A stretch of DNA of 15,907 bases, taken from Ruminococcus albus 7 = DSM 20455 (lineage in GTDB: Bacteria > Bacillota > Clostridia > Oscillospirales > Ruminococcaceae). Position numbers and translations under genes: made by a program. This document shows positions 177 to 15,907 of this stretch, one piece after another. The notes beneath the pieces are model-generated. The model was given only the letters and a program-made list of their open reading frames with translations. It searched no databases and was not told where the DNA came from. The stretch covers positions 1-15,907 of the forward strand of contig NC_014826.1 in the NCBI RefSeq assembly GCF_000179635.2. The letters are read 5' to 3'. Numbering within the stretch: position 1 is the first letter of the stretch; the number at the start of each line of letters is the position of its first letter.

Positions 177-941
177 ATGCAAAGAATATTTGGCTATTGC
201 CGTATTTCCAGACCCACACAGAACATCGAGCGACAGGAGCGCAATATAATCAAGTCATACCCGACGGCTCGCATATACAAAGAGGCTTACACAGGAACTA
301 AGACCTCAGGGCGCAAGGAACTTGAAAAGCTCCTGAAACAGGTGCAGAGCGGTGACATGATCGTATTTGACAGCGTGAGCCGTATGAGCCGTAATGCTGC
401 CGAGGGCGTGGAGCTGTATCTTCAGCTTTATGAGCAAGGGGTGGAGCTTGTTTTTCTCAAAGAACCCCACATAAACACTTCTACCTATAAACAGGCGCTT
501 TCCCGTGATGTGCCGATGATCGGAGAGGATGTAGACCTTATATTGCAAGGAGTGAACGCATATCTTAAAAGGCTGGCTGTGCGGCAGATCGAACTTGCAT
601 TCGGTCAGGCACAAAAGGAAGTTGACGACCTTCACCAAAGAACAGCCGAGGGCATCGAAACAGCACGGCGCAACGGCAAGCAGATCGGACAGCGTAAAGG
701 GGCAACACTCAATGTCAAGAAGGCGGCTGCTGCAAAGAAGATCATACGCACGAGCTGCAAGACATTCGGTGGGACCCTGACCGATGAGCAATGCGCTGCT
801 GCTGCAGGCATATGCCGCAAGACATACTACAAGTACAAGGCGGAGCTGCGCCGAGAGTTTGAAGCAGAGGGACTGCAAATGACCCTCGATGAAGTATCCG
901 GACAAGCACCGCAAGGCACTAAAGACACGAACGCTCTTTAG
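177..941 (+). CDS. small serine recombinase (resolvase/invertase family)
   Basis: 254-aa ORF. N-terminal catalytic motif YCRISRPTQNIERQ (Ser-11), a DSVSRMSRN motif, and a C-terminal HTH-like segment GICRKTYYKYKAEL. SD and promoter lie upstream, terminator downstream. Confidence 0.9.
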   Translation: MQRIFGYCRISRPTQNIERQERNIIKSYPTARIYKEAYTGTKTSGRKELEKLLKQVQSGDMIVFDSVSRMSRNAAEGVELYLQLYEQGVELVFLKEPHINTSTYKQALSRDVPMIGEDVDLILQGVNAYLKRLAVRQIELAFGQAQKEVDDLHQRTAEGIETARRNGKQIGQRKGATLNVKKAAAAKKIIRTSCKTFGGTLTDEQCAAAAGICRKTYYKYKAELRREFEAEGLQMTLDEVSGQAPQGTKDTNAL

Positions 942-2481: not shown

Positions 2482-3471
2482 CTATGTGCAGAGTATATCT
2501 TTTATGCTGCTGTGTACCAGTTTTGCTTTAATTATGACGCAGTTTGATATTGCCTGCTCTATCACGGATTCGATCTTCCTGCCAAGCGATGCCGCTGTTG
2601 TCCTGTATTGATGTACAAGCGCGGCTATGTCATTCAGCTCCTGCAATGATACATTTGACTTCTTCTTGCGGCGAAGTATATTTCTTACTGTGTGGCGGTC
2701 AGAACGGAAATGCTTTTCAGTGGTGTAGCGCATTTTATTTCTGCCGTACTGATCTCTTGATGCAGTCACCGGATTTTGTATTTCGGCAACTGTACATTCA
2801 GAAAGTGAAAATGTAGTTCTGTGGACAGGGAAAGCAAGGCTGTGTCCGTTGTTTGAATACTCAACTGAACAGCCTATTTTTATTATTCCTGCTTTTCTGA
2901 GGTGTGCTATCGCTTTTCTGACGGTCTGAACAGATATTCCGAGCTGTTCTGCAATAGCTTTGTACGCCGTGAATTTACTTTTGAAAACAAGGTCGTTGGT
3001 GACATCGCCTGATTTAGACAAACGGAAAAAAAGGTACATCAGCACTCGTATTTCCGCATGATGCATAGTTTTGAGGCTTTGCGCCTTTAACCATACAAAA
3101 TCTATGTTTATGTAGTTGCTGAATGGCTTGTCCTCGCCCGCATATGCCATTTCAAAGTCATTATAAGGTATTTTAAGGATGATCTCCGCATTGCAGTTCT
3201 TATCTTTGGGTTCTCTTATTATCAGAGGGGTCTTTATTTTATTGCCATTTGGTAAATTTATTGTTACAAAAGTGTTTTCAAGAAATTTTACGGAAGCATA
3301 GAATGTCTTCGTATCAATGCAAAGAGTTTCTTCGATATCCCTGTGATAGATCGAGATCCTGCCGTTGACATCACAATGGCTGGCTAGGTAGATCTCTAGT
3401 GTTAAGGCACTTTTAGGGATTTCTTTTGTTCTATATAATGCTTTGAATATCCAATCTTTAATTGTTTGCAT
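2482..3471 (-). CDS. putative plasmid replication initiator / DNA-binding protein with two winged-helix-like segments (329 aa)
   Basis: I place the start at ATG 3471 (MQTIKDW...) because AAAGGAGG lies 9 nt upstream. The track start at 3516 has no SD. Two wHTH-like segments: LTLEIYLASHCDVNGRISIYHRDIEETLCIDTKTFYASVKFLEN and EIRVLMYLFF...AIAEQLGISVQTVRKAIAHLRKAGIIKI. The tail is basic. The Rep function is inferred from this architecture plus the antisense-RNA context, not from a recognised signature. Confidence 0.55.
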   Translation of the reverse strand: MQTIKDWIFKALYRTKEIPKSALTLEIYLASHCDVNGRISIYHRDIEETLCIDTKTFYASVKFLENTFVTINLPNGNKIKTPLIIREPKDKNCNAEIILKIPYNDFEMAYAGEDKPFSNYINIDFVWLKAQSLKTMHHAEIRVLMYLFFRLSKSGDVTNDLVFKSKFTAYKAIAEQLGISVQTVRKAIAHLRKAGIIKIGCSVEYSNNGHSLAFPVHRTTFSLSECTVAEIQNPVTASRDQYGRNKMRYTTEKHFRSDRHTVRNILRRKKKSNVSLQELNDIAALVHQYRTTAASLGRKIESVIEQAISNCVIIKAKLVHSSIKDILCT

Positions 3472-3563
3472 TAAAAAAGACCTCCTTTCGTCTTCAAGCA
3501 GTTTAAAACTACACAACGAACGGAGATCTGAACATCATACTTAAAAAGATTTTTGAAATGGTA

Positions 3564-5077: not shown

Positions 5078-5530
5078 TTACATCTCCCTTTCCAGTTTGA
5101 TTATCCTTTGATGTCTTTCCGCCACTTCCATATCATGTGTAACCGTAATCACAGTCGTGTTATACTCCTTGTTCATGCGGGAGAGCAATGAGAGGATATT
5201 CTCCTTATTCTCGCCGTCAAGGGAAGCGGTGGGTTCATCACATAATATCAGCGGTGGACGCATTATTACTGCCCTTGCAAAGACCGCGCGTGCTTTTTCT
5301 CCGCCTGAGCATTCAAGCGGCTTTTTTTTCAATATATGCTTGATGCCGATCTTTTCCGCTATGCTTTCAAGTTCTTCTGAAAAATCTTTCCTATCGGGAC
5401 TTGCATAAAGTAGAGGAAGTCTGATGTTGTCTTCGATTGAAATAGAATCTATCAGAGCCGATTCCTGCAAAACGAATCCTATCTTACGGTTTCTCCATTC
5501 AGCCAGTTGATTGAGGTTAGCGTCAGACGG
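5078..5530 (-). pseudogene. 5'-truncated ABC transporter ATP-binding protein (MacB/LolD-like ATPase remnant)
   Basis: The frame reads ...ANLNQLAEWRNRKIGFVLQESALI... (Q-loop), CSGGEKARAVFARA (signature), LILCDEPTASLD (Walker B) and VTHD (H-loop). There is an in-frame TGA at 5531-5533, no Walker A, and no credible start (the track start is a TTG inside the domain). Confidence 0.75.
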
Positions 5531-5612
5531 TCAGAGTACACTATGTAGTGCAGAATCAGCACACTCCCCCTCGCGGCAATCACCACAGATTAGAAAAGCC
5601 ACTGACACAGCG

Positions 5613-5645
5613 AAAAAAACACCCCCATGATAATTCTGGAGGTGT
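5613..5645 (-). terminator. strand-specific rho-independent terminator of the P1 micro-ORF transcript
   Basis: Minus-strand RNA ACACCUCC-agaauuaucau-GGGGGUGU (one U-G pair; it would be a C-A mismatch on the plus strand) followed by U7. Confidence 0.6.
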
Positions 5646-5765
5646 ACATAATATATGTTTTGGTTAATAATGTCCTATTCTACGTATTGCGAAGCCAACT
5701 GCTACGCAGTACAGTGATCTTACTTGCGGAGTGTCAGCTGGATAACCATAATTGTAGCTTTATAA

Positions 5766-5794
5766 TTGACACAAAAACTAATATATGATATAAT
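5766..5794 (+). promoter_or_regulatory. consensus promoter reading toward the two-component genes (and antisense to the P1 micro-ORF transcript)
   Basis: TTGACA (5766-5771), 17 bp, TATAAT (5789-5794), preceded by TGa (extended -10). Confidence 0.6.
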
Positions 5795-5994: not shown

Positions 5995-6061
5995 TACATT
6001 AATTAATGTTTTTTTGAAACATTATAATGATTTATATATATTTTTTATGGAGGGGAAATAC

Positions 6062-6775
6062 ATGAAAATCGCGATTTGTGACGACCAGATGGCTATGCAC
6101 ACCGAGTTAAAAAAGCATCTGGAAAATTATGCCCAAAAGAGAAACCTTATAATGATCTACAATGACTATACCAACGGTTTTGACCTTATCAGCAGCCAGA
6201 ACGAGTACGACATTATTTTTATGGATTATCAGATGGCAGAGATAGACGGTCTTGAAACTGCCAGACAAATAAGAAAGAAAAATACTGATACTACCATAAT
6301 ATTCCTGACCAGCTTTCCCGATATCGTCTTTGATACCTTTGAAGTAAATGCATACAGGTTTTTAGTAAAGCCGATAGATGATGCAAGGCTTGAGGCTGCA
6401 CTGGATTCATATCTTTCGGACAATGATGAATCAAACTTCATCCTCATAAAGACCGATGAGAGCAACCAAAAAATAAATATAAACGATATAATTTATATAG
6501 AAGCATCAGACAAGTACTGCAATATCAGGACAAATGAAGGTACTGTACTATTCAAAAAGACCTTGTCCGAAATTGAAAAGATGCTTCCCGAGGATAAATT
6601 CTTCCGATGCCACAGAACTTATCTGGTAGGGTTCCGCCATATCGTTTCGCACACATCGACAGATGTACTTTTTGATAATAAGGAAAAAGCTCTTATCAGC
6701 AGGGTAAAGCTCCCGCCGTTTAAAAAAGCTTTTACCAACTATATAAAGAGATATAATTTCCAGAAGGGGAGCTGA
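6062..6775 (+). CDS. LytTR-family response regulator (AgrA/ComE-like)
   Basis: I place the start at ATG 6062 (MKIAICDD) with a GGAGGGG SD. The track start at 6014 lacks one. REC domain (ICDD...IIFMDYQMAEIDGLE...IIFLTS) plus a C-terminal LytTR domain (IIYIEASDKYCNIRT...FFRCHRTYLV). Confidence 0.9.
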   Translation: MKIAICDDQMAMHTELKKHLENYAQKRNLIMIYNDYTNGFDLISSQNEYDIIFMDYQMAEIDGLETARQIRKKNTDTTIIFLTSFPDIVFDTFEVNAYRFLVKPIDDARLEAALDSYLSDNDESNFILIKTDESNQKININDIIYIEASDKYCNIRTNEGTVLFKKTLSEIEKMLPEDKFFRCHRTYLVGFRHIVSHTSTDVLFDNKEKALISRVKLPPFKKAFTNYIKRYNFQKGS

Positions 6776-6777
6776 AA

Positions 6778-8079
6778 ATGACCACCGTTTCTTATTTAGT
6801 AATGCTTGCAAACATCCTGGAACAGCTTATGTTCGTCACGCTTGCAAGAACAATTTGTGATTTCAAATCATCGCGTATCAGATATCTAGGCTATTTTCTG
6901 CTCATACTCACTCTGCTACCCGTGCCTATTCTTATGAACAAACCCGATTTCTGCTCTAAGGAAATGGGTCTGATATTACAATTAATTTATGTTTTCGGAC
7001 GTATCCCCGCATACAGCGTATTATTCGAGGAATTCAGTCAGAGAGTTCTGTATATTTTCCTGCTGTCACAATGGCCGCCGCAGATATATCTGAATATTTG
7101 CAAGGCATTTATCAAAGATTATGAGCTCTGCAATCTTATCGCATTTTCTGCGGATATCCTTATTTTGTTCCTTATATTCATTTACATCAAAAGAAAAAAG
7201 ATAGAGTCCATGCTTCATCAGATCATCAAATCACTGCCCAAAAGACTTTATATAAACATACTTTTACTTTTATTTATTGCGGCAATATTTGTAATGGGCG
7301 AAACAAAACCCGATCATGAACATTATTATAAAAAATACATCCTGCCTTCCATGATGGGACTGATAGTTTTTTTATTTTCTATAGTAAAGATAAGTATATC
7401 CGAGATCGAAAAAAAGACAACGATAGATCTGCTGTCAAAGCAGGTGGAAAATGAAGTAAAGTACTATGAAAAGATAAACACCATTTATGGCGAATTCAGA
7501 AGCTTTCGGCATGATTTCAAAAATCATGTTATCTGTCTGAGGAGCCTTATCGAATCAAACGAAAAAGAAAATGCTCTTGAATACATAAACGAGATAGAAG
7601 GTCTTTCCTCTGTCGAGAAAAAGCAGTACAACACAGGAAATATAATCATTGACGCACTTTTGAATGATAAAAACGACAGAGCAGCGGCAATAAATACTAA
7701 AATAGTATTCTCCGGAATGGTCCCCACAACCGGTATAAGCAACGTTGATCTGTGTATAATAATGGCAAATGCCATAGATAATGCAATTGAAGCCTGCGCC
7801 AAGGACACCTCAGAAAAGCCCAAGGAGATAAATGCGGAAGCAAGCTTCAGGCAGGGATATTTTTTCTTTAAGATCACAAATCCTATTTATGAAGCTGTGG
7901 AAATAAAAAGCAACAATACTATTACGACTTCAAAGAGCGATAAGGATCGTCACGGCTTCGGTGTAACGAATATTCTCCGCACTGTCCAAAAATACGACGG
8001 TGAAGCCGAACTGTCTGCCGATGATAATAAGTTTACACTGGATCTGAACCTGGTATTGAAACCCGAAATCATAAAATGA
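6778..8079 (+). CDS. AgrC/ComD-type (HPK10) membrane sensor histidine kinase
   Basis: About 6 N-terminal TM helices. H-box FRSFRHDFKNH, N-box IIMANAIDNAIEA, G-box DRHGFGVTNI. The ATG lies 2 nt after the regulator's stop, with an AGGGGAG SD. Confidence 0.9.
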   Translation: MTTVSYLVMLANILEQLMFVTLARTICDFKSSRIRYLGYFLLILTLLPVPILMNKPDFCSKEMGLILQLIYVFGRIPAYSVLFEEFSQRVLYIFLLSQWPPQIYLNICKAFIKDYELCNLIAFSADILILFLIFIYIKRKKIESMLHQIIKSLPKRLYINILLLLFIAAIFVMGETKPDHEHYYKKYILPSMMGLIVFLFSIVKISISEIEKKTTIDLLSKQVENEVKYYEKINTIYGEFRSFRHDFKNHVICLRSLIESNEKENALEYINEIEGLSSVEKKQYNTGNIIIDALLNDKNDRAAAINTKIVFSGMVPTTGISNVDLCIIMANAIDNAIEACAKDTSEKPKEINAEASFRQGYFFFKITNPIYEAVEIKSNNTITTSKSDKDRHGFGVTNILRTVQKYDGEAELSADDNKFTLDLNLVLKPEIIK

Positions 8080-8105
8080 GATCAGAAAAAATCACAATAA
8101 ATACA

Positions 8106-8171
8106 TTTCACTCTGTTTATACTACCGTTCACTCTGTAATCATAGACTGCATCATACTGTAATGATACAAT
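8106..8171 (+). promoter_or_regulatory. P2: LytTR-type direct-repeat operator plus -10
   Basis: tTTCACTCTG (8106-8115), 11 nt, GTTCACTCTG (8127-8136), tAATCATAG, exactly 29 nt after the right repeat, TACAAT (8166-8171). Confidence 0.7.
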
Positions 8172-8278
8172 TTGTATGAAGGAATACTATCAAACTGTTT
8201 AGTAGTGAATAGTAAAAGCAATAAATGATTATAGCTGTTGCTATAATTTTAAAACGATATAAATGGTGGTGAAAATTA

Positions 8279-8740
8279 TTGCAATTTATCGAACACATAA
8301 ACATTTATGCTGAAAACCTTATAACATACACTGCGAGCATAAAAAAATCAGAGATATATAAAATAATCCAGCATATAAACGATAATCTTTCGGCACTGAA
8401 CATCAAAGTCGCAGGAAAATTCATTTTCACATTCAAAGAAGACAAAAATTCTGATGAAGTACAGCCTGTAGAGATACTTATCCCTGTAAAGGGTGAAATA
8501 GGATCCTCGGACAGCTACGGCAAGAAGCTTATATTCCGTCTCATCAACGCTGTTATGACAAAGCACGAGGGCAGCATCAACGATATTTCAGATTCAGAAC
8601 AAGCTCTAAAGGACTATATACAGAAAAATAATTATGAACCGATAACCAACACTTATTATGTAGTGATAAGAAACGGTGATACATTCGGTGCAGACTGTAT
8701 TTTTGAAATGTATATAGGTGTAAACTATAACTCGCTGTAA
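8279..8740 (+). CDS. GyrI-like (SbmC/AraC-effector-binding fold) small-molecule-binding protein
   Basis: 153 aa. TTG start with a GGTGGTGA SD. Two-repeat pattern with VEILIPVKGEI in the first half and a YYVVIRNGDTFGADCIFEMYIGV C-terminus, similar to SbmC ...FEVYLN...WDIEMYVAV. The family call is from remembered motif similarity only. Confidence 0.6.
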   Translation: MQFIEHINIYAENLITYTASIKKSEIYKIIQHINDNLSALNIKVAGKFIFTFKEDKNSDEVQPVEILIPVKGEIGSSDSYGKKLIFRLINAVMTKHEGSINDISDSEQALKDYIQKNNYEPITNTYYVVIRNGDTFGADCIFEMYIGVNYNSL

Positions 8741-8769
8741 AATGGCAGAAGCACGGTTTTGTGTTTGGC

Positions 8770-8812
8770 ATAACCCGTCACCCCTTACACTTTGTAAGGG
8801 GTGACGGGTTAT
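8770..8812. terminator. 20-bp perfect hairpin between convergent ORFs
   Basis: ATAACCCGTCACCCCTTACA-ctt-TGTAAGGGGTGACGGGTTAT. The T-run (TTT) is short, so efficiency is uncertain. Confidence 0.6.
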
Positions 8813-8817
8813 TTCAC

Positions 8818-8946
8818 TTATATATCGCTAAAGTGAACCTGACCTTCAAGTCGTTCTTCGGACTCAGGCTTAGGCTCTATACGCTTTTTCTTATAGATAA
8901 AAGCCCTGGTTTCGTCAACCATATCATCACAAATTACTATTTTCAT
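8818..8946 (-). pseudogene. 42-codon ORF whose first residues look like the start of a receiver domain (possible regulator remnant)
   Basis: MKIVICDDMVDETRAFIYKKKRIEPKPESEERLEGQVHFSDI. Compare MKIAICDDQMAM... of the regulator at 6062. AAGGTGA SD. The ORF runs straight into the 8770-8812 hairpin. The similarity covers only about 10-20 residues. Confidence 0.3.
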
Positions 8947-9038
8947 ATGATAAGATCACCTTGAAAAAACAATATAGCTATATAGCTGCCATCTGGAAGA
9001 AAGCTCGGTATAATGAGAGTTAAAGGGTGTTATATACC

Positions 9039-9104
9039 GTTTACTCTGAATTTAGTGATGTTTGCTCCATAATGATAGCCAGAACCGATAAGGTGATGTA
9101 TACT
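9039..9104 (+). promoter_or_regulatory. P3: LytTR-type direct-repeat operator plus -10
   Basis: gTTTACTCTG (9039-9048), 11 nt, GTTTGCTCCA (9060-9069), tAATGATAG, exactly 29 nt after the right repeat, TATACT (9099-9104). Confidence 0.7.
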
Positions 9105-9144
9105 AGCATCATCAGAAGAACACAAATGAAAGGAGCGATCAGTT

Positions 9145-9171
9145 ATGTGGCTTTGGCCCTGGTTACCATAA
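9145..9171 (+). CDS. Trp-rich 8-codon micro-ORF MWLWPWLP
   Basis: AAAGGAG (9129-9135) lies 9 nt upstream of ATG 9145. 3 of 8 codons are TGG, and it ends Pro-TAA. It sits about 34 nt downstream of the predicted P3 TSS. Translation is unproven. Confidence 0.3.
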   Translation: MWLWPWLP

Positions 9172-9437
9172 TACAAAATAACATAAATCACAATATCAGG
9201 CAGAAATGATTAATGTTTTGAAATCAATGATAATGTCATAAATACTATATCGTGTTTTTTAGTATCAATAGTAATCTCCTGATAAAACAGCGAAAAGAAA
9301 TTTATAATAAATTGCAAAAACAGTTTTCTTTGCGAATGCAATTGTATAATTTTTTTCTATACCGGTGTAGAATAACTTTTAACCGGGAAACTATATTAAC
9401 TTCTGATTTACTGAACGAAACATGAAGTAATTCCAAA

Positions 9438-9469
9438 CGATTATCTTCAGGTACATCTTCGGTTACTAC
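9438..9469. repeat. left arm of a 32-bp inverted repeat bracketing the precursor genes
   Basis: The reverse complement of 9438-9469 (GTAGTAACCGAAGATGTACCTGAAGATAATCG) matches 10297-10328 at 31/32. Weaker similarity continues about 20-25 bp on both sides. Confidence 0.8.
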
Positions 9470-9652
9470 AATACACAAATTATAAGCAGCTTTGATGTAT
9501 GCGAATACTAACCTTTGGTCTTTCGGATTTCCAGCTGGATCAGCTAACTGTTTGGCATGATATATGTCTGCTTCAGCTAATATGTGCTTTTTTACGGAAT
9601 ATTTCCTGACAATTCCAATGTTCGATCAAATTAGAATAAAGGAGTAAAAAAT

Positions 9653-9859
9653 ATGGAATTATTTGAATTAATGGCAGAAGAAGCATGGAGCTGGGGAGCA
9701 GCAATTTGTGGAGGAGTTTGTGGTCTTGGCGGAGCAGCAGGTTGTGCAGCAATCTGTGGAGTTGATGGTCCTATCCCTGTAGCAGATGCAAGTGCAATTA
9801 CAGCATCAGGTACAGCAGCAGGCGGACTTGGAGCTCTCGCAGCAGGTCTTGCATCATAA
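9653..9859 (+). CDS. RiPP precursor peptide, copy 1 (68 aa, Cys/Gly/Ala-rich)
   Basis: MELFELMAEEAWSWGAAICGGVCGLGGAAGCAAICGVDGPIPVADASAITASGTAAGGLGALAAGLAS. Strong AAAGGAG SD. Cys at 19, 23, 31 and 35. It lies immediately upstream of two rSAM/SPASM genes. Confidence 0.85.
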   Translation: MELFELMAEEAWSWGAAICGGVCGLGGAAGCAAICGVDGPIPVADASAITASGTAAGGLGALAAGLAS

Positions 9860-9897
9860 TTGAATTTACTGAAAATTATCACAAAGGAGTAAAAAAT

Positions 9898-10104
9898 ATG
9901 GAATTATTTGAATTAATGGCAGAAGAAGCATGGAGCTGGGGAGCAGCAATTTGTGGAGGAGTTTGTGGTCTTGGCGGAGCAGCAGGTTGTGCAGCAATCT
10001 GTGGAGTTGATGGTCCTATCCCTGTAGCAGATGCAAGTGCAATTACAGCATCAGGTACAGCAGCAGGCGGACTTGGAGCTCTCGCAGCAGGTCTTGCATC
10101 ATAA
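9898..10104 (+). CDS. RiPP precursor peptide, copy 2 (identical)
   Basis: Nucleotide-identical to 9653-9859, with the same SD. Confidence 0.85.
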   Translation: MELFELMAEEAWSWGAAICGGVCGLGGAAGCAAICGVDGPIPVADASAITASGTAAGGLGALAAGLAS

Positions 10105-10296
10105 TCAGTTTAGTACATAGAAATATTAAAAACATCAATATTAATCCGGATTGTCAAAGAAAGTGAAACTGGATATAGCATATACATGAAACAGCCATAT
10201 ATTGTGCTTATATGACATGACGGGTAAGCTGGATGAAATTTACGAAAATCTGAGACAGGATACCGCTTAATTATATCTGCTGATATTTTTAGTTTA

Positions 10297-10328
10297 GTAG
10301 TAACCGAAGATGTATCTGAAGATAATCG
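10297..10328. repeat. right arm of the 32-bp inverted repeat
   Basis: GTAGTAACCGAAGATGTATCTGAAGATAATCG, the partner of 9438-9469. Confidence 0.8.
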
Positions 10329-10397
10329 CTTTGACTTCTTCACTTTTGGTTTAATTTATCTGTAATTTTATATAATATATAACAAGGGAAAAATAAG

Positions 10398-11810
10398 ATG
10401 AATAATAATTGTAATATCTGTTTTAAATCTGACAGTAATAATGAATATGTCTTTGATTCTGATTCATCTGTTATTTTTGAAAAAAGTCAGTATGAGAAAA
10501 GAATCGACAAGATCAGTAAAATGAAAAAGACAAATCAAATTCAGAATAAAAGTTATGACAGTCATGACATTGAAGAATATATACTTAAGTACGGACTTGG
10601 TCAAATGGTTCTGGAAGTGACTAACCGCTGTAATTTCAGATGCGAGTACTGTATTTTTTCTGAGCATTATCAAGGACACAGTAAACTTGAAAATGAAAAT
10701 ATGACATTAGAAACAGCGATAAGGGCTATAGATATGTATATGGACCTTATTGAAAAAGGTAAGATATACAATCCAGAACGCACCCCTATAATAGGATTTT
10801 ATGGTGGAGAACCCCTTCTGAATTTTGATCTTGTAAAAAAATGTGTTGAATATGCCAAAGAGCGTTATAAAGGGAGAGTTTTATTTTCAATAACGTCTAA
10901 CGCGTATCTGCTGAATGACGAAGCAAGTAAATTTATGGCTGAAAATGATTTTATGCCGATATTCAGTCTGGATGGACCGCAAAAAATACATGATAGTAAT
11001 AGAAAACTTGCCGGTGGTAAAGGAACATTCGAAAGAGTGTATCAGAATATAAGAAATTATGCACGTGTCACTAACAGTATTCCTATGATAAATAGTGTAT
11101 ATGACTATAATACTGATATGGAAGAACTGATGGAGTTCTGGTCTGAACAGAATGAAATGGTGCTTCTGTCTCTTTCTCCGGTAAATCCTTACGATACAGA
11201 TTATTACAATAGTTTTGATGAGAAAACGGTAAAGACCTTTTTTGAAAAGAAACTGAAGCTCGAAAAGTACTTTCATGAACTGGTGGCTAAAAAAGATGAC
11301 CTGACTTCAAAGGAAAAAAGAGAACTTAATTTTTTAAATGTTTTTCTTGGAAAGCCCGCGTCTTCTGTTTATATGAAAGAAATGTTCAAAGATCCTTCAA
11401 GAAGTATAGTGAAGTGTACCGGAAGCTGTGTCCCAGGAGATAAGATGTTTGTTAATGTCCATGGTGATATATATCCATGTGAAAAAGTTGATAAAACAAT
11501 GATCATAGGTAATTTAAACAGTGGTCTTGATTATTCAGTTATATGCGGATATATGAAGGAATTTGAAGCTAAAATAACTTCAGGATGCAGTAACTGCAGT
11601 GTAAAAAACGTATGCAGTTTATGTTATCAGTCACTGCACTGTGAAAGCGGATTCTGCAAAAATGCACAAAGCTGCAATAATATGAGGAATAGTTATAAAG
11701 AACTCCTTTCAAGAGCTGTTTCACTGTCAGAAGAGAATCCTGCGTGGTTTTCAGATTTTACTACAAAATATTACAAAGAAATTAAAGAATTGGCTGTGGT
11801 GCTTAAATGA
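10398..11810 (+). CDS. radical SAM / SPASM-domain peptide maturase 1 (470 aa)
   Basis: CNFRCEYC (CX3CX2C) in VTNRCNFRCEYCIF. GGEPLL motif. C-terminal Cys cluster CTGSCVPGDKMFVNVHGDIYPC ... CSNCSVKNVCSLC ... C typical of SPASM auxiliary Fe-S domains. The ~70-aa N-terminus has no obvious wHTH. Confidence 0.85.
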   Translation: MNNNCNICFKSDSNNEYVFDSDSSVIFEKSQYEKRIDKISKMKKTNQIQNKSYDSHDIEEYILKYGLGQMVLEVTNRCNFRCEYCIFSEHYQGHSKLENENMTLETAIRAIDMYMDLIEKGKIYNPERTPIIGFYGGEPLLNFDLVKKCVEYAKERYKGRVLFSITSNAYLLNDEASKFMAENDFMPIFSLDGPQKIHDSNRKLAGGKGTFERVYQNIRNYARVTNSIPMINSVYDYNTDMEELMEFWSEQNEMVLLSLSPVNPYDTDYYNSFDEKTVKTFFEKKLKLEKYFHELVAKKDDLTSKEKRELNFLNVFLGKPASSVYMKEMFKDPSRSIVKCTGSCVPGDKMFVNVHGDIYPCEKVDKTMIIGNLNSGLDYSVICGYMKEFEAKITSGCSNCSVKNVCSLCYQSLHCESGFCKNAQSCNNMRNSYKELLSRAVSLSEENPAWFSDFTTKYYKEIKELAVVLK

Positions 11811-13048
11811 ATTATAAATATTTCAGATTATATGAGGAATGCTATCTTGTAAACGGAAAAGAGAAGTCGTGTATATATGATCTCTTCAATGAAAAGGTAT
11901 TTCATGTGGATGAAGACCTAAGAAAAATTCTTACCCTGACTGAAAACAATAAAAGTTTTGATGATGTCTGTCATGAACTGAATATTACTACGACATTTCT
12001 TGAAGAAAAACTTAAAGAAGCAGAAAAATTTCAGGTAGGAGGATTCTATGAGAAACCTCCTGCAATAGAAAAAGTTACGCTGCATCCTGACTGGAAAGAC
12101 AATCTTTTTTTCAAACTTCCTCCGCAAATTAACAGAGCTTTTCTGGAGCTTAGCAATGAGTGTGATAACAACTGCTTTTTCTGTGCATCCGATCGTTATT
12201 CACTTCGTTTCAGATGCATGGGGTGCGGAAAGGATCCTTCGTATAATAATATAACTATATCTGTAGAAAAATGGACAGAGTATATGAAACAGTTATATGC
12301 TCTAGGTGTTACAGAGCTGTACATTACAGGAGGAAATGTTTTTTTGGATGTTCCTAAGCTTAAAGCGGTTATATTATCAGCTAAAGAGATCGGATTCAGA
12401 TATATAAATGTTATATCAGGAAATCGTAATATCAACGCTTTACGACAGCTGGGTGAAGTAGCGAACGGCGTTAAATTTATTATACAGAGATATCTTGACG
12501 AAAATTATAAACAACTCATTGAAAGTGATGAAATCATACAAAATATTGATATCTTGGATAAATCAGAATACTGCTTCGTGTTTTTACTTGATTACTATAA
12601 TAAATCCCTTGTAAATGATATTGCTGCAACGGTCAAAAATAAAATTAAACAGAACAGTTTTTATTTTGATTATCTTTTGGATAATCAGAATCTCACGGAT
12701 ATACAGCTTAGAGAGATCAAGTTTACCAACAGTAAAATTAAACTAGATGATTTTTCAATCAAAGGTAAATATAATCCTTGCCTCAATTCAACCGTTACTA
12801 TCAAAGCTGATGGTATTATAACTACCTGTCCGGGATTGAAGGATTATCCGTTATCAAAAACCGGTGATCTCTATGAAGCGATAAAAAAAGATAATATCAC
12901 CAGATACTCTTCACTGGGTTGCAATGATATAGAACCTTGTAATAAATGTGAATATAGATATCTTTGCAGTGACTGCAGATATATCGAGATCAAAAATGGT
13001 GCACAGCTCAATCAGACCAGAATTTGTGATAAATGTATGGTGGGCTGA
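11807..13048 (+). CDS. radical SAM / SPASM-domain peptide maturase 2 with an N-terminal PqqD/RRE-like region (413 aa)
   Basis: ATGA overlap with the upstream stop. CDNNCFFC (CX3CX2C). C-terminal CLNSTVTIKADGIITTCPG ... CNKCEYRYLCSDC ... CDKC. The first ~100 aa (YLVNGKEKSCIYDLFNEKVFHVDEDLRKILTL...) resemble leader-binding RRE domains of sactisynthases. Confidence 0.8.
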   Translation: MNYKYFRLYEECYLVNGKEKSCIYDLFNEKVFHVDEDLRKILTLTENNKSFDDVCHELNITTTFLEEKLKEAEKFQVGGFYEKPPAIEKVTLHPDWKDNLFFKLPPQINRAFLELSNECDNNCFFCASDRYSLRFRCMGCGKDPSYNNITISVEKWTEYMKQLYALGVTELYITGGNVFLDVPKLKAVILSAKEIGFRYINVISGNRNINALRQLGEVANGVKFIIQRYLDENYKQLIESDEIIQNIDILDKSEYCFVFLLDYYNKSLVNDIAATVKNKIKQNSFYFDYLLDNQNLTDIQLREIKFTNSKIKLDDFSIKGKYNPCLNSTVTIKADGIITTCPGLKDYPLSKTGDLYEAIKKDNITRYSSLGCNDIEPCNKCEYRYLCSDCRYIEIKNGAQLNQTRICDKCMVG

Positions 13049-13064
13049 CAGAAATGAGGTACGT

Positions 13065-13991
13065 ATGGATAATGTGATCGAATTTAAAAACGTATACAAA
13101 AAATATGATTCTGTAAACGTTCTGGAAAATGTAAGCTTTTCTGTGAAAAAACATGATGTATTTGGGTATATCGGTCCTAATGGTGCGGGAAAAACTACTT
13201 CCATTCGTCTTATAACAGGACTCCTTGAACCTACTCAGGGAGAAGTGAAAGTATTTGGAGAAATACCAGAAAAGAATAACATCAAATCCAAAATAGGCTT
13301 TTGTTATGATAATGATGGCCTTTATACTAATCTTACTGCTTTTGAAAATATGTGTTTTTTCGATATAGTGTATAACGATGCTAAGGGAAGAGACAAGAGG
13401 ATAAATGAACTTCTTGCACTGGTAGGGCTTGAAAAGGCAGTGAACAGGAGAGTGAGCGAGTTTTCAAGAGGAATGAAAAAACGTCTTGGTCTTGCCAGAG
13501 CACTTATCTGTTCACCAGAGATCCTTATACTTGATGAACCTATGATAGGTCTTGATCCTGAAGGGCAGGCCGATATAAAACGTATCATTAATAATATAAA
13601 AGATAAATGTACGATATTTCTGAGCTCACATAATCTTAATGATGTGGAGGAGCTTTGCAACAGAGTTGCAATACTTGAGCATCGTATACTTACCGATGGA
13701 CTTCTTTCCGATATCCTTGCAGATGATACTCCTGTTGTAAAAGTAACTTTGAATGAGCCGTGCACGTATGAACGGTTATCTGGCCTTCTTGGATCAGGAG
13801 CAAGTGATATTGAAATATCAGATAAAACAGTAAGAATCAGATTCAGCCAGAAACCGGACCTGAATACTGTAACAGGTTTTCTTATCGATAAAAAGATTGG
13901 ATTTAAAGAAATTGGTATAGTGAACAGTAGTTTAAGAGAAAAATATTTCAGTTTAGTGGATGGAGAGAATCATGAACATGCAGGCAATTAA
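13065..13991 (+). CDS. ABC-2-type exporter ATP-binding protein
   Basis: I place the start at ATG 13065 (MDNVIEFKNV) with a GAGG SD. The track start at 12948 lies inside the previous gene. Walker A GPNGAGKTT, signature FSRGMKKRLGLA, Walker B ILILDEP, H-loop SSHNL. Confidence 0.9.
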   Translation: MDNVIEFKNVYKKYDSVNVLENVSFSVKKHDVFGYIGPNGAGKTTSIRLITGLLEPTQGEVKVFGEIPEKNNIKSKIGFCYDNDGLYTNLTAFENMCFFDIVYNDAKGRDKRINELLALVGLEKAVNRRVSEFSRGMKKRLGLARALICSPEILILDEPMIGLDPEGQADIKRIINNIKDKCTIFLSSHNLNDVEELCNRVAILEHRILTDGLLSDILADDTPVVKVTLNEPCTYERLSGLLGSGASDIEISDKTVRIRFSQKPDLNTVTGFLIDKKIGFKEIGIVNSSLREKYFSLVDGENHEHAGN

Positions 13992-14685
13992 AGCGATAGC
14001 TTATAAGGAAAAGATCTCTGTAAAAAAGAGCATAAAGTCTCTTTTAATCATCAATGTTGTTTTTATATGTATACTGCTTGCGACTTCCATAAAAAAAAGC
14101 AGTGGTTTTCTGGATGAAGGTGTAACTGATGTAAGTAATCTTTTGGTCGGAAGTACAGGCTATGTTTCTATATTTTTATCATTTGTGACATTTATAAGTA
14201 CACTTAAATTCTGGCAGGAAAAAAGTATGGATGCTATTGATTCCCTCTTTTCCCTTCCAGTATCAATAAGAAAAATACTTGTTGGAAAAGTAGCGTTTTC
14301 AATGCTTATTGGAGTTATTGGTTTTGCTGTAGCTTTTATAACAAGCATTATTGTGTACGCGGTTAAATTTAAGGTTTTTGCTTTTTCACCTGTAGCAGCG
14401 CTGTTAATGCTGGCTATATCGCTTCTGCTGAATTTTTCTTATGGTATAATAAACGGTTTCTGTATGTGGCAGCTGTCAGTTGGTAAAGCTAAAATAATTC
14501 AGGGGCTTACATATGTTATTTTCCTTGGAGGTATCATAGGCCTGAATGGATGTATTACTGCTGATGGGATAAATATGAATGTGGTATATGCTTTGATTGC
14601 TGCGGTAATTTTACTTGCAGCCGGAGCAGTATATTCACTAATCCTTGCAAATAAGGAAAAGATAATACTTAATCACATAGAATGA
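13972..14685 (+). CDS. ABC-2-family permease (6 TM)
   Basis: GGAGAG SD before ATG 13972; an alternative ATG at 13960 is in frame. It overlaps the ATPase 3' end. EKSMDAIDSLFSLPVSIRKILVGK motif, typical of ABC-2 permeases, plus multiple TM helices. Confidence 0.8.
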   Translation: MNMQAIKAIAYKEKISVKKSIKSLLIINVVFICILLATSIKKSSGFLDEGVTDVSNLLVGSTGYVSIFLSFVTFISTLKFWQEKSMDAIDSLFSLPVSIRKILVGKVAFSMLIGVIGFAVAFITSIIVYAVKFKVFAFSPVAALLMLAISLLLNFSYGIINGFCMWQLSVGKAKIIQGLTYVIFLGGIIGLNGCITADGINMNVVYALIAAVILLAAGAVYSLILANKEKIILNHIE

Positions 14686-14698
14686 AAGATTATTGTAA

Positions 14699-15424
14699 AT
14701 GACTAATATTATTCAAAGTATAGTAGCGGCCGAAAAAGTACTGATGCTTTTGATCGCCATAGGATATTTTTTTTATTTGAGACAGAAAAGGGTGCTGACT
14801 CATAGCATACCAATAATTATTATCATAGGTATTTGTTCCTGTTTAAATCTTTTTAACCATAATCATGGTGTAATTTACAATGTGATATTTTGTGTCTCAA
14901 ATTTCGCAAAATTATATGTGCTTTCAACTGTAGGATATACCCTCTGGAAACAGAGAAAAACAAGAGCGGGATCAGATGCAAATACAGGTATATTAAGTTT
15001 TATAATACTGCTGACAGTTATGCTGTGCTGGGGACTGCTCATGCGTGTTCTTATTGGATCTCAGATTTCTGAAGGCTATAATGAATATTTAAGAAATTTC
15101 ACAGTCACTTCCGGAACCTTTTTTGTTTTGCTTAATGGTCTGATCATAGGTCCGATATCTGAGGAAATTTACTACAGATGCTTTTACGGTGAAATGTTCA
15201 TGTCATGGACAGACAAAATGAAATACTCCGCAGTCTTTACAATTTTTATTACTGCAATAAGTTTTTCTTTAAGCCATATCAGCATTTATTCAAATGATCT
15301 TATGAAAATGATCCAGGTTTTCCCTATAGGCATCATACTTGGATATGTGAATTATAAAAAAGGCGTTTTATATTCTATCCCGATGCATATACTTTACAAT
15401 ACCGGATTATTGCTGATCAGGTGA
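14699..15424 (+). CDS. CPBP-family (CAAX/Abi) intramembrane glutamic protease
   Basis: SEEIYYR (EExxxR), FSLSH (FxxxH) and HILYN (HxxxN) motifs in a polytopic membrane protein. Confidence 0.85.
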   Translation: MTNIIQSIVAAEKVLMLLIAIGYFFYLRQKRVLTHSIPIIIIIGICSCLNLFNHNHGVIYNVIFCVSNFAKLYVLSTVGYTLWKQRKTRAGSDANTGILSFIILLTVMLCWGLLMRVLIGSQISEGYNEYLRNFTVTSGTFFVLLNGLIIGPISEEIYYRCFYGEMFMSWTDKMKYSAVFTIFITAISFSLSHISIYSNDLMKMIQVFPIGIILGYVNYKKGVLYSIPMHILYNTGLLLIR

Positions 15425-15435
15425 TAAAAAAGCAG

Positions 15436-15673
15436 TACAAGCTGTAACAGACGTGTATTGGCCGTGCGGATTCCCTCAATCTCATTGGATGCCTCCGCAC
15501 TTTGCACCTTTGCTAATCTCAATCAGACGGTCAAGTTCCGCTAGTTTCTGCTTCAGATAAAGCTCCTGCCTACCATTGTATTCATGTATCTGCGCAACAA
15601 GCCTGATGATTTCACTGTCCCAGGAACGACTTGCCAGCTCAATATAATCAAATTTTAAATAGGAGTATTCCAC
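15436..15673 (-). pseudogene. Fic-family protein N-terminal remnant (frameshifted and 3'-truncated)
   Basis: MEYSYLKFDY...AQIHEYNGRQELYLKQKLAELDRLIEI matches the usual Fic N-terminal region. The expected continuation AKVQSAEASNEIEGIRTANTRLLQLV is in the +1 frame (an apparent 1-nt insertion near 15514). Similarity ends near 15436. The Fic core HxFx(D/E)GNGR is absent. Confidence 0.7.
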
Positions 15674-15762
15674 TTCGCTTTCAGAATTTCAGGGGTATTT
15701 CTGAAACAAGTCTCTCACAATTAGAAAACAAACACGAAGTCTTCTTTTACTTATAAAAAATC

Positions 15763-15818
15763 CACCCCTCACGCATTCCAAATGGATTCGTTTGGTGCAT
15801 CGAAAGCGTGAGGGGGTG
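15763..15818 (-). terminator. GC-rich hairpin (CCCCTC family), probable terminator of the gene entering from the right edge
   Basis: CACCCCTCACGC ... GCGTGAGGGGGTG, with one bulged G and a ~31-nt loop containing a CCAAA/TTTGG mini-stem. On the minus strand it is followed by AUUUUUUAU. Confidence 0.5.
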
Positions 15819-15828
15819 TTCTGTATTA

Positions 15829-15907
15829 TTAGAAACGGCGTGATTTGTAGTAGCTTCTTAGGATATTTTCTACTCTTAATTTCCTGTTCCGTCCACCTCT
15901 GACCATT
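15829..15907 (-). CDS. 3' end of an unidentified ORF running off the window (basic tail ...GGRNRKLRVENILRSYYKSRRF)
   Basis: The frame is open to the window edge, with TAA at 15831-15829 just before the 15763-15818 hairpin. Too short to identify. Confidence 0.25.
   Translation of the reverse strand, partial: MVRGGRNRKLRVENILRSYYKSRRF

Follow-up and report, generated by a model that had tools for sequence, protein, structure and literature searches.

Tandem identical genes for a predicted huazacin-family sactipeptide on a small plasmid of Ruminococcus albus 7

The plasmid locus and its precursor genes

The window, by which we mean the whole stretch of DNA analyzed (15,907 nt), contains a gene cluster carried on a 15.9-kb circular plasmid of R. 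albus 7. The features of the cluster are listed in Table 1. Both precursor open reading frames translated to MELFELMAEEAWSWGAAICGGVCGLGGAAGCAAICGVDGPIPVADASAITASGTAAGGLGALAAGLAS, a product for which RefSeq already gives the name "huazacin family RiPP peptide [Ruminococcus albus]" (WP_013483959.1). An AGGAG ribosome-binding site was located 8 nt 5' of the ATG of copy 1 and lies within a 233-nt repeat unit that occurs at 9628-9860 and again at 9873-10105, with a period of 245 nt. A first-pass annotation of the sequence had called the two genes identical at the nucleotide level, and all 207 nt indeed agreed.

Table 1. Coordinates of the precursor genes, flanking repeats and neighboring genes in the window
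Feature	Position	Strand	Remarks
LytTR-family response regulator, 237 aa	6062..6775	+	Pfam Response_reg + LytTR
AgrC-like (GHKL/HPK10-type) membrane histidine kinase, 433 aa	6778..8079	+	Pfam HATPase_c_5; weak NCBIfam AgrC
Conserved 153-aa protein	8279..8740	+	Between kinase and precursors; sub-threshold DUF5085 only
Inverted repeat, left arm, ~110 nt, imperfect	9392..9504	.	Brackets the precursor pair
Precursor gene copy 1, 68 aa	9653..9859	+	NCBIfam NF037972; exact match WP_013483959.1 / ADU24422.1
Precursor copy 1, predicted leader	9653-9685	+	Codons 1-11
Precursor copy 1, predicted core	9686-9856	+	W12-S68
Precursor gene copy 2	9898..10104	+	207/207 nt as in copy 1
Inverted repeat, right arm	10264..10374	.	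Between precursor copy 2 and maturase 1
Radical SAM/SPASM maturase 1, 470 aa	10398..11810	+	Pfam Radical_SAM, Fer4_12, SPASM; HuaB/ThzC position
Radical SAM/SPASM maturase 2, 413 aa	11807..13048	+	N-terminal RRE-like domain; ATGA overlap with maturase 1 stop
ABC transporter ATP-binding subunit, 308 aa	13065..13991	+	Pfam ABC_tran 1e-30; NCBIfam lantibiotic-protection/DrrA-type matches
ABC-2 type permease, 237 aa	13972..14685	+	Weak Pfam ABC2_membrane_4
CPBP/Rce1-like intramembrane glutamic protease, 241 aa	14699..15424	+	Pfam Rce1-like 1.8e-13; motifs EEIYYR, FSLSH, HILYN

The residues that the first-pass annotation had picked out were all found in the translation: four N-proximal Cys at positions 19, 23, 31, and 35 (C-x3-C-x7-C-x3-C), AAICG at residues 16-20 and again at 32-36, AWSWG at residues 11-15, and a C-terminal half without Cys beyond residue 35 that ends in the Ala/Gly-rich tail GGLGALAAGLAS. 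How far these features exceed chance was judged from 200,000 composition shuffles of the precursor. Four Cys in a single i/i+4 register within 17 residues occurred in approximately 0.027% of the shuffles (P~3e-4). In contrast, the AAICG pair is unremarkable because 5.4% of the shuffles (P~0.05) contained some repeated 5-mer, and the pair varies in homologues (AAVCA/AAICG in P0001 and AAICG/VALCA in P0002). Given P=0.054 and the lack of conservation, we rejected the idea that the pair is a meaningful repeat. The periodicity noted for the tail is real, with small residues spaced i/i+4 at G53, G57, A61, and G65 in the register of the Cys ladder; however, the label of glycine zipper is better explained by that register. 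A transmembrane glycine zipper per se was rejected, as the small residues sit on the predicted acceptor register. Both the AAICG pair and the "glycine zipper" are more plausibly explained as side effects of the i/i+4 ladder.

A precursor, two radical SAM (rSAM) genes and an ABC ATPase gene were present in all 10 cluster types read, the huazacin cluster included. The ATPase start (ATG 13065) was picked to agree with the 308-aa gene called in related locus L001. The gene at the permease position is conserved in L001, L007, and L009-L013, and a small membrane-protein or permease gene was present in the 10 cluster types except L006, which has an unannotated hypothetical gene in that position. Most of the family's clostridial clusters contain the CPBP protease, a candidate immunity or leader-processing protein, but it is missing from L006, L011, and the Bacillus huazacin cluster. 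The 153-aa protein occupies the same place in L001-L005. No matches were returned by megablast of 6000-15907 against PLSDB plasmids, by Rfam over the whole 15,907 nt, or by Pfam for the frame within the arm of the inverted repeat and for other small reading frames. A promoter and terminator scan of 8700-10450 gave nothing above shuffles.

The inverted repeat on either side of the two precursor genes has a 68-nt core that is 81% complementary and extends over about 112 nt by local alignment; L001 has one of 105 nt (75% complementary). When metagenome contigs were searched for the junction pattern of an invertible cassette, the flipped state was found 0 times and the observed state, which served as the control, just once, too few for the comparison to have power. 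The orientation of the precursor pair was identical in 7 of 7 contigs seen. In L012 and L007 the precursor is on the strand opposite to the rSAM genes.

Relationship to huazacin and predicted maturation

Huazacin (thuricin Z) is, to our knowledge, the sole characterized member of its family. The R. albus 7 precursor scored 50.1 bits against the NCBIfam model of that family, NF037972 (cut-off 35), with residues 22-59 aligned to model positions 2-39/40. For direct comparison, the huazacin precursor was taken from the annotation of Bacillus thuringiensis plasmid pBT62B; when its leader is taken as 8 aa, the Cys and acceptor residues of this precursor fall exactly on the published links C4-H38, C8-Y34, C12-T30, and C16-D26 (PMC8172795). 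BLASTP aligned precursor residues 23-57 with huazacin residues 12-45 at 46% identity (E 4e-5). C19, C23, and C35 were invariant in an alignment of 21 sequences of the long form; when huazacin was added, C23 and C35 were still invariant and C19 nearly so. W14, C23, C35, D38, and D45 were invariant in the 23-sequence alignment that includes huazacin. D45, at +10 from the last Cys, aligned with D26, the proven acceptor of huazacin, and the last three Cys coincided as well. The R. albus 7 peptide is thus an uncharacterized, extra-long relative of huazacin that belongs to a known family and constitutes no new system.

The extra length was distributed over both arms. Counted from the last Cys, the Cys residues are at -16, -12, -4, and 0 here, whereas huazacin has them at -12, -8, -4, and 0; rungs -20 and -8 are occupied by Cys in other family members, and -8 (G27) is empty here. 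The invariant Trp is at -21 rather than -14, and the tail has 33 residues instead of 23, giving about 7 more residues in the Cys arm and 10 more in the acceptor arm. An alternative register, shifted by one residue, exists for the acceptor arm: the gap placed by BLASTP would pair T50, T54, and G58 with huazacin T30, Y34, and H38. An AF2 model of the precursor gave a helix, a break at GPIP and a second helix, at low confidence (pLDDT 56.5). The long clostridial form is rare, with approximately 20 sequence clusters among 5.8 billion proteins and 8 representatives among 1.84 billion. A scan of genome contigs with the precursor-alignment pattern gave 57 pattern matches, 0 of which were confirmed by tblastn.

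The first-pass annotation had anticipated a very short leader of about 15 aa, to be separated from the core by aligning homologous precursors. The alignment placed the boundary at A11|W12. A short leader is probable (that of huazacin is 8 aa), but its length is more likely about 11 than 15 aa because conservation begins at W12, 16 of the 21 sequences with a residue at position 11 have G or A there, and the mature N-terminus of huazacin is Y-W. No gene for a dedicated leader peptidase was recognized. By this alignment, the leader is probably the acidic MELFELMAEEA, and WSW would belong to the core since the leader is that short. The R. albus-type leader does not carry the MxP[IV][NQ] motif common to huazacin and most clostridial members.

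Maturase 1 was 32% identical to the first rSAM of the pBT62B huazacin cluster (E 5e-66) and maturase 2 was 24% identical to the second (E 1e-26, colinear over the full length), and the order of the pair is the same in both clusters. The closest solved sequence to maturase 1 was CteB (5wgg). Its best NCBIfam matches were CcpM and RumMC, but it scored under the cut-off of every named maturase family, including CcpM (230 bits) and PapB (153 bits, cut-off 340). In maturase 2, the CxxxCxxC motif (C119/123/126) and seven C-terminal Cys were invariant in 11 homologues, and the AF2 model showed an N-domain of beta-strands and three helices, which is RRE-like, followed by the barrel. The hairpin logic that the first-pass annotation had proposed, with donor Cys in the first half and acceptors in the second, is supported: the precursor passed NF037972, its last three Cys and acceptor Asp align with those of huazacin, and the huazacin cluster contains a counterpart of each maturase. 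Because the rSAM pair matches the huazacin maturases one to one, homology supports the reading as a donor-Cys arm, a turn and an acceptor arm. By homology to the published huazacin links (PMC8172795), we infer that the mature peptide carries nested Cys-to-alpha-carbon thioethers.

Beyond homology, gene content, and feature order, which are observed, we also infer the cleavage, folding, crosslinks, and roles that follow. Removal of an acidic leader of about 11 aa would leave a core of about 57 aa, hydrophobic and anionic, with WSW at its N-terminus. The N-terminal arm, W12-C35, would present the Cys ladder i/i+4 at 19, 23, 31, and 35, with G27 as the empty rung. The chain would then be reversed by the conserved turn C-x-[VI]-DGP-x-P-x-x-D-A, and the Cys-free arm D45-S68 would supply the alpha-carbon acceptors. 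The thioethers would be made by the two translationally coupled, dissimilar RRE-rSAM-SPASM enzymes, probably acting as a complex. Applying the constant donor plus acceptor sum of huazacin, we predict the links C35-D45, C31-I49, C23-G57, and C19-A61. The calculated monoisotopic mass of W12-S68 is 4913.361 Da unmodified and 4905.298 Da with four thioethers; with four thioethers and a start at A11, S13, or G15, it is 4976.335, 4719.219, or 4446.107 Da, respectively. The ABC ATPase/permease and the CPBP protease may serve in export, self-protection, and possibly leader removal, and expression may be under the LytTR/AgrC-like two-component system. Overall, we consider it likely that the two identical genes are tandem, homogenized copies, borne on a small circular plasmid, that encode the precursor of a bacteriocin of the huazacin/thuricin Z family, a sactipeptide of type I (nested hairpin).

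Alternative chemistries and a possible signaling role

The chemistry of the product could depart from this prediction in more than one way. The first-pass annotation had suggested that the second maturase might crosslink WSW as in the darobactin class. Under this scenario, a Trp C-C or ether crosslink of darobactin or streptide type would be added to the thioethers, giving two modification classes. Of 23 family sequences, 16 have W12-S13-W14 and all, huazacin included, have W14, and the two maturases had no significant sequence similarity to each other. Moreover, the top Foldseek match of the maturase 2 model was SuiB, a Lys-Trp crosslinking enzyme, ahead of CteB, a thioether synthase; however, the E-value margin was only about 10-fold and the TM-scores were 0.34-0.42. 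The suggestion did not hold against the gene content of the family. Two rSAMs are kept in 10 of 10 cluster types read, with or without WSW, and precursors with single-Trp motifs (LNW, MNW, VNW, SGW, KHW, or YW) also keep both in every locus read. Maturase 2 is colinear with the second huazacin rSAM, whose orthologue ThzD makes in vitro the same four sactionines as ThzC, and only thioethers have been reported for huazacin (PMC8172795). In thuricin CD, the second rSAM is a complex partner with no second chemistry, TrnC and TrnD acting together through RRE domains (PMC12093266). Maturase 2 had no matches to the NCBIfam DarE, DynA, or cyclophane models, and the 67 bits of maturase 1 against DynA (cut-off 450) reflect generic SPASM similarity. 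Membership in the darobactin/dynobactin class was rejected, as WSW is N-terminal, after about 11 residues, and the G-A-A that comes next offers neither Lys nor another partner residue of the darobactin type (W-x-W-x-K). We regard a Trp crosslink as most improbable; the invariant Trp beside the first Cys may instead cap the mature, membrane-active peptide at the interface.

Another scenario is a ranthipeptide-like product with thioethers at beta or gamma carbons, for example at the invariant Asp45, and not at alpha carbons. The preferred acceptor of PapB is Asp, and Asp is the sole invariant residue of the acceptor arm. The sub-cut-off PapB and CcpM scores of maturase 1 point the same way, but this enzyme is far nearer to the huazacin rSAM than those scores suggest. 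The remaining predicted acceptors are Gly, Ala, and Ile, and Gly has no beta carbon. Deuterium labeling placed the huazacin/thuricin Z links on alpha carbons, Asp26 included (PMC8172795). Taken together, these data make ranthipeptide-type links very unlikely, and alpha-carbon thioethers remain our preferred reading.

Comparison with a sister plasmid bears on how the two copies are kept identical and on what the peptide does. The first-pass annotation had named recent duplication or gene conversion as the source of the identity. On the sister plasmid, the two precursor copies are again identical to each other, yet they differ from the R. albus 7 pair at six sites. All six changes (6/6) are non-synonymous, lie in the core, and are present in both copies. 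Gene conversion is thereby favored, and the pattern indicates that it has probably acted together with fast change of the core. The five maturation, export, and protease genes differed at 20 of 5022 nt (~99.6% identical), and the response regulator had 99.6% protein identity. In contrast, the kinase was 66.5% identical over residues 1-215, a hypervariable sensor, and 95.4% identical over residues 216-433.

These differences raise the scenario that the mature peptide is mainly a signal, an autoinducer of the adjoining AgrC-like kinase, with or without killing. A separate pheromone-like small reading frame was sought near the regulator genes and not found, and strong divergence between the two haplotypes is confined to the peptide core and the membrane sensor of the kinase. 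However, this co-variation comes from just two haplotypes, and unrelated recombination could account for the sensor block, given a synonymous divergence of 0.32 in the kinase (aligned codons 78-433, mostly the sensor part) and 0 in the precursor. Furthermore, huazacin is a bacteriocin that permeabilizes membranes (PMC10125368), and the two-component system is missing from the family's other clusters. A mainly signaling role is therefore unlikely. A related proposal is that peptide and kinase form a "pherotype" pair, the sactipeptide being its own quorum signal with a core that diversifies together with the sensor domain; gene conversion would keep the copies identical, and each cell would therefore carry a single signal or bacteriocin variant. 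We hold this proposal to be speculative and rather doubtful, and the peptide to be probably a bacteriocin of the huazacin type.

Comparison with known sactipeptide systems

About ten sactipeptides are of known structure. The best solved-structure match of the precursor was subtilosin A, by way of C-x-VDGPIP, and was marginal (E 0.07). As established by Kawulka et al. 2003/2004, subtilosin A is a nested hairpin with N-terminal donors and C-terminal acceptors. It shares with the R. albus 7 peptide a C-x-V-D-G-P-I-P stretch right after the last donor Cys and, by the present prediction, a short leader, but it is head-to-tail cyclized, has three Cys where there are four here, and is matured by a single rSAM, AlbA, with the AlbE/AlbF peptidases, none with a counterpart here. 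A cluster of the subtilosin A (sbo-alb) type was rejected, as M16 peptidase genes are absent from the window and two rSAMs are present, not one.

Tandem structural genes in multiple copies are also known for thurincin H. Thuricin CD has two adjacent rSAM sactisynthase genes and a nested-hairpin peptide. Its enzymes form a complex via RRE domains (PMC12093266), to which the ATGA overlap and the RRE-like N-domain of maturase 2 correspond here; however, its two distinct peptides act together, whereas the two genes here are identical. Like thurincin H, ruminococcin C and gnavucin D have tandem multi-copy structural genes, and leaders are about 9 aa in these multi-copy loci, thurincin H included (PMC13239113). 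These three belong to other peptide families with other Cys spacings, and no sequence relationship to them was detected.

Huazacin is the closest comparison. The two peptides belong to the same NCBIfam family and share an N-terminal i/i+4 Cys ladder with an aromatic residue and Trp ahead of it, 10 residues from the last Cys to the invariant Asp, an acceptor arm rich in Ala, Gly, Thr, and Ser, and, as predicted here, a very short leader. Their clusters share at least two identical tandem precursor genes, two rSAM/SPASM maturases unlike each other, and an ABC ATPase after these. In contrast, the precursor is 68 aa here and 47 aa in huazacin (predicted core of about 57 versus 39 aa), the ladder is set one rung outward with one rung empty, the turn is DGPIP rather than DTASP, and the predicted leader is an acidic MELFEL... 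rather than MEPIQRDD. A CPBP protease and a LytTR/AgrC-like pair are present here, a second large ABC transporter is missing, the host is a rumen clostridial organism with a 15.9-kb plasmid, and the maturase identities are only 32% and 24%. The classification is unchanged, as the peptide is an uncharacterized member of an annotated family. The bacteriocins published for R. albus 7, a model rumen fiber degrader, are large proteins, and with this peptide the strain would gain its first small modified bacteriocin. The long form would represent the huazacin ladder with one or two rungs added to each arm and an empty rung tolerated, and it therefore offers a natural test of how a sactisynthase pair counts and registers crosslinks. 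It also probes why the clusters of the huazacin family always keep two unrelated rSAMs.

A huazacin-family precursor on a small plasmid

The precursor matched the NCBIfam model NF037972, 'huazacin family RiPP peptide', at 50.1 bits (cut-off 35); a Pfam search of the precursor gave no match. Exact look-up identified it as WP_013483959.1 / ADU24422.1 and ADU24423.1, and its RefSeq name is already 'huazacin family RiPP peptide [Ruminococcus albus]'. The classification is thus already known, and the R. albus 7 precursor is an uncharacterised new member of a known family. UniRef wrongly labels the R. albus precursor (strain ATCC 27210) 'Type II secretion system protein E'. A literature search for the cluster, plasmid or accession found no paper; the only R. 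albus 7 rSAM in the list of Letzel et al. is chromosomal, and the bacteriocins published so far from this strain are class III proteins. The family has few members: only 8 proteins at E<=1e-3 came out of a profile search across 1.84 billion representatives, and approximately 20 clusters out of a word-indexed search of 5.8 billion. Members were found on a Clostridium botulinum plasmid, one 556-kb contig, and metagenome contigs; homolog P0020 lies on a Clostridium septicum plasmid, per the source's own name.

The window is a circular replicon: in the sister contig L001, window position 15907 runs directly into position 1. Its size agrees with that of plasmid pRUMAL03 of R. albus 7. Sister contigs L003-L005 carry the same bacteriocin module beside Rep3, Mob_Pre and BrnT/BrnA genes, all missing from the window; the module therefore sits on mosaic small plasmids. 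The best NCBIfam match of the truncated ATPase was a lactococcin-972-type bacteriocin exporter ATPase, and this fragment probably represents the pseudogene remnant of a different bacteriocin system.

Features of the window
Feature	Position (nt)	Strand	Remarks
Serine recombinase	177-941		Backbone
HTH/RepL-like protein	2482-3516	-	Backbone
Truncated ABC transporter ATPase	5078-5470	-	C-terminal part alone, from about profile position 66
LytTR response regulator	6062-6775		Upstream of precursors
AgrC-like GHKL kinase	6778-8079		Upstream of precursors
Conserved 153-aa protein	8279-8740		Upstream of precursors; no assigned role
Perfect 20-bp stem, 3-nt loop	8770-8812		3' of 153-aa gene
42-aa ORF	8818-8946	-	Starts MKIVICDDMVDETRAF
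Inverted repeat, arms	9392-9504 / 10264-10374		Imperfect, about 110 nt
Repeat units	9628-9860 / 9873-10105		233 nt, 245-nt period
Precursor copy 1	9653-9859	+	Translation MELFELMAEEAWSWGAAICGGVCGLGGAAGCAAICGVDGPIPVADASAITASGTAAGGLGALAAGLAS
Precursor copy 2	9898-10104	+	Translation MELFELMAEEAWSWGAAICGGVCGLGGAAGCAAICGVDGPIPVADASAITASGTAAGGLGALAAGLAS; 207/207 nt identical to copy 1
Maturase 1, rSAM/SPASM	10398-11810		470 aa; downstream of precursors
Maturase 2, rSAM/SPASM	11807-13048		413 aa; start overlaps maturase 1 stop (ATGA)
ABC ATPase	13065-13991		Downstream of precursors
ABC-2 permease	13972-14685		Downstream of precursors
CPBP/Rce1-like protease	14699-15424		EExxxR, FxxxH, HxxxN motifs intact

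Duplication and local divergence

The two precursor genes are identical at every nucleotide, as the first-pass annotation stated, and AGGAG is present separately in each repeat unit. A sister plasmid about 97-98% identical to the window is present on five metagenome contigs (L001-L005). Two copies with the same 245-nt period were found in L001, L002, L003 and L005; L004 stops after the first copy. The sister copies are identical to each other but differ from the window pair at six sites, all amino-acid-changing and none synonymous (window to sister: I18V, G20A, A28V, I49V, T50A, A56T). Since copies are identical within each plasmid and different between them, the duplication must predate the split and the copies have been homogenised, which bears out the gene conversion originally suggested from the window. 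Precursor copy number was one in the family clusters L007-L013, two in the window, and three in the Bacillus thuringiensis plasmid pBT62B.

Differences from the sister plasmid concentrate locally in the precursor, with 6 in 207 nt compared to 20 across 5022 nt of downstream sequence (five genes; Fisher P = 4e-4). Besides the precursor, just one block has diverged strongly: the membrane sensor domain of the kinase (residues 1-215; 6778-7420), where protein identity is 66.5%. The kinase domain retains 95.4% and the response regulator 99.6%. Nucleotide divergence reached approximately 25% at 7009-7408, whereas the maturase genes were nearly identical. No pheromone-like small ORF was evident near the sensor region. 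The paired divergence of precursor and sensor recalls agr/com pherotypes; with two haplotypes only, the resemblance is only a lead.

The inverted repeat flanking the precursor pair has a 68-nt core that is 81% complementary, and the same decayed reading frame (VVTEDVxEDNR) can be read in both of its arms. The sister plasmid has this repeat too (L001, 2504-2608 / 3369-3473). In the relatives L012 and L007 the precursor and the rSAM genes are on opposite strands, so an inversion of the cassette has taken place in the course of evolution. A scan for a flipped-cassette junction gave 0 matches, and the control for the observed orientation matched just one contig. The stem loop reads CTT in the window and AAG in the sister plasmid; the center of the palindrome is thus flipped, which explains the three adjacent 'substitutions' at 8790-8792. 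The start of the 42-aa ORF resembles the response regulator N-terminus, MKIAICDDQMAM. This ORF, gene-called in L001-L005, probably originated as a gene fragment in a rearrangement.

Leader, cysteine ladder and predicted links

A tblastn search with maturase 1 against plasmids identified pBT62B. On this plasmid, three identical genes with the annotation 'huazacin family RiPP peptide' are accompanied by two rSAM genes, and the cluster also encodes an ABC ATPase, a second ABC transporter and a small protein labelled hypothetical. The PLSDB resistance-gene layer calls each of these three 47-aa genes (L006, the pBT62B cluster, 5195-5791) 'LUT-6 beta-lactamase, identity 100%', which is impossible for a 47-aa peptide. 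The pBT62B precursor peptide is MEPIQRDDYWGCALKCAGPCLGVCAIDTASPVMDAVGTASGYAGGHG; if its first eight residues are taken as leader, Cys occupy core positions 4, 8, 12 and 16, and positions 26, 30, 34 and 38 hold D, T, Y and H. We took it as the authentic huazacin precursor because these positions equal exactly the published links of thuricin Z/huazacin (C4-H38, C8-Y34, C12-T30, C16-D26; PMC8172795). Residues 23-57 of the R. albus precursor align to huazacin 12-45 (BLASTP, 46% identity, E 4e-5). This alignment, the family match and the matching rSAM pair support the sactibiotic hairpin layout proposed in the first-pass annotation.

The anatomy described there was present in both translations: Cys 19, 23, 31 and 35, AAICG at 16-20 and 32-36, AWSWG at 11-15, and a Cys-free second half ending in GGLGALAAGLAS. 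Chance was assessed by composition shuffles. A repeated 5-mer appeared in 5.4% of shuffles, and homologs do not conserve AAICG; the repeat, once thought notable, is noise in a peptide so rich in Ala, Gly and Cys. Only 0.027% of shuffles had the register of the Cys (spacings all multiples of four, <=17 residues).

The first approximately 11 residues differ between clades (MEL[FLV]E... in the R. albus clade, M-x-P-[IV]-N-... in most others, MEPIQ in huazacin), conservation starts at W12, and position 11 is mostly G or A. Given also the 8-aa leader and mature Y-W-G-C N-terminus of huazacin, cleavage is likely at A11|W12. The leader would then be short, as proposed, at about 11 aa instead of 15, which would place WSW in the core. 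The predicted core is hydrophobic (GRAVY 1.09) and anionic.

Cys ladders, counted relative to the last Cys (= 0)
Peptide	Cys positions
Window precursor	-16, -12, -4, 0
Huazacin	-12, -8, -4, 0
P0023	-16, -12, -8, -4, 0
P0003-P0005, P0007	-20, -16, -12, -4, 0
P0008	-20, -16, -12, -8, -4, 0
One-residue-shifted subgroup, n = 7 (P0009, P0015, P0016, P0018-P0021)	-16, -12, -5, 0
One-residue-shifted subgroup, n = 5 (P0010, P0011, P0017, P0022, L007 peptide)	-19, -15, -11, -4, 0

Across 23 aligned sequences including huazacin, W14, C23, C35, D38 and D45 are invariant and C19, G39, P40, P42 and A46 nearly so. The Cys positions thus form one ladder with a variable count of occupied rungs, the empty rung in R. 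albus being G27. Five homologs (P0003, P0004, P0007, P0011, P0017) have an extra Cys in the C-terminal arm, located at the C-terminus or close to it. The same five have an additional Cys immediately following the invariant Trp; such a pair at both hairpin ends would permit a further outermost link or a closing disulfide.

The tail had been read as a glycine zipper. Its small residues are real, yet G53, G57, A61 and G65 continue the i/i+4 register from D45 and I49, the predicted acceptor register. With a constant donor+acceptor sum (80 here, 42 in huazacin), they would pair with positions 27, 23, 19 and 15, and the predicted thioether links would be C35-D45, C31-I49, C23-G57 and C19-A61. The BLASTP gap against huazacin also permits a one-residue-shifted acceptor register (T50, T54, G58).

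The two maturases and comparison with known systems

The CxxxCxxC motif of maturase 2 (C119/123/126) is retained in 11/11 homologs, as are seven C-terminal Cys. In the AF2 model of this enzyme (pLDDT 68.6), an RRE-like N-terminal domain of beta-strands and three helices precedes the barrel. The model matches SuiB and CteB to a similar degree, with low TM-scores; these matches reflect architecture, not chemistry. The first-pass annotation had suggested, from WSW, that this enzyme might perform darobactin-like chemistry on that motif. However, two rSAMs were kept in every cluster read (ten cluster types) whichever Trp motif the peptide has, and W14 alone is invariant in WSW, W12 giving way to L, M or V in several homologs; we consider this role very improbable. 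For thuricin Z, ThzC and ThzD each install all four sactionines (PMC8172795), and in thuricin CD, TrnC and TrnD form an obligate complex via RRE domains in which the radical chemistry of TrnC alone is essential (PMC12093266). The ATGA overlap, with similar overlaps in L007, L008 and L011-L013, fits stoichiometric co-production of both rSAMs. Taken together, the conserved pair, these precedents and the overlaps point to maturase 2 as a predicted partner sactisynthase.

Of the two huazacin rSAMs of pBT62B, the first shares 32% identity with maturase 1 (E 5e-66); the second shares 24% with maturase 2 (E 1e-26) and is colinear with it end to end. Maturases 1 and 2 showed no significant similarity when compared to each other, resembling what is reported for ThzC/ThzD. 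The noteworthy structural variation lies in the longer ladder, empty rung, DGPIP turn, CPBP protease and AgrC-like regulation. Subtilosin A, the best PDB match of the precursor (marginal, E 0.07), shares the turn C-x-V-D-G-P-I-P. Both arms exceed those of huazacin in length: the invariant Trp sits at -21 instead of -14, and 33 residues instead of 23 follow the last Cys, a joint lengthening as would be expected for arms that pair in a hairpin.
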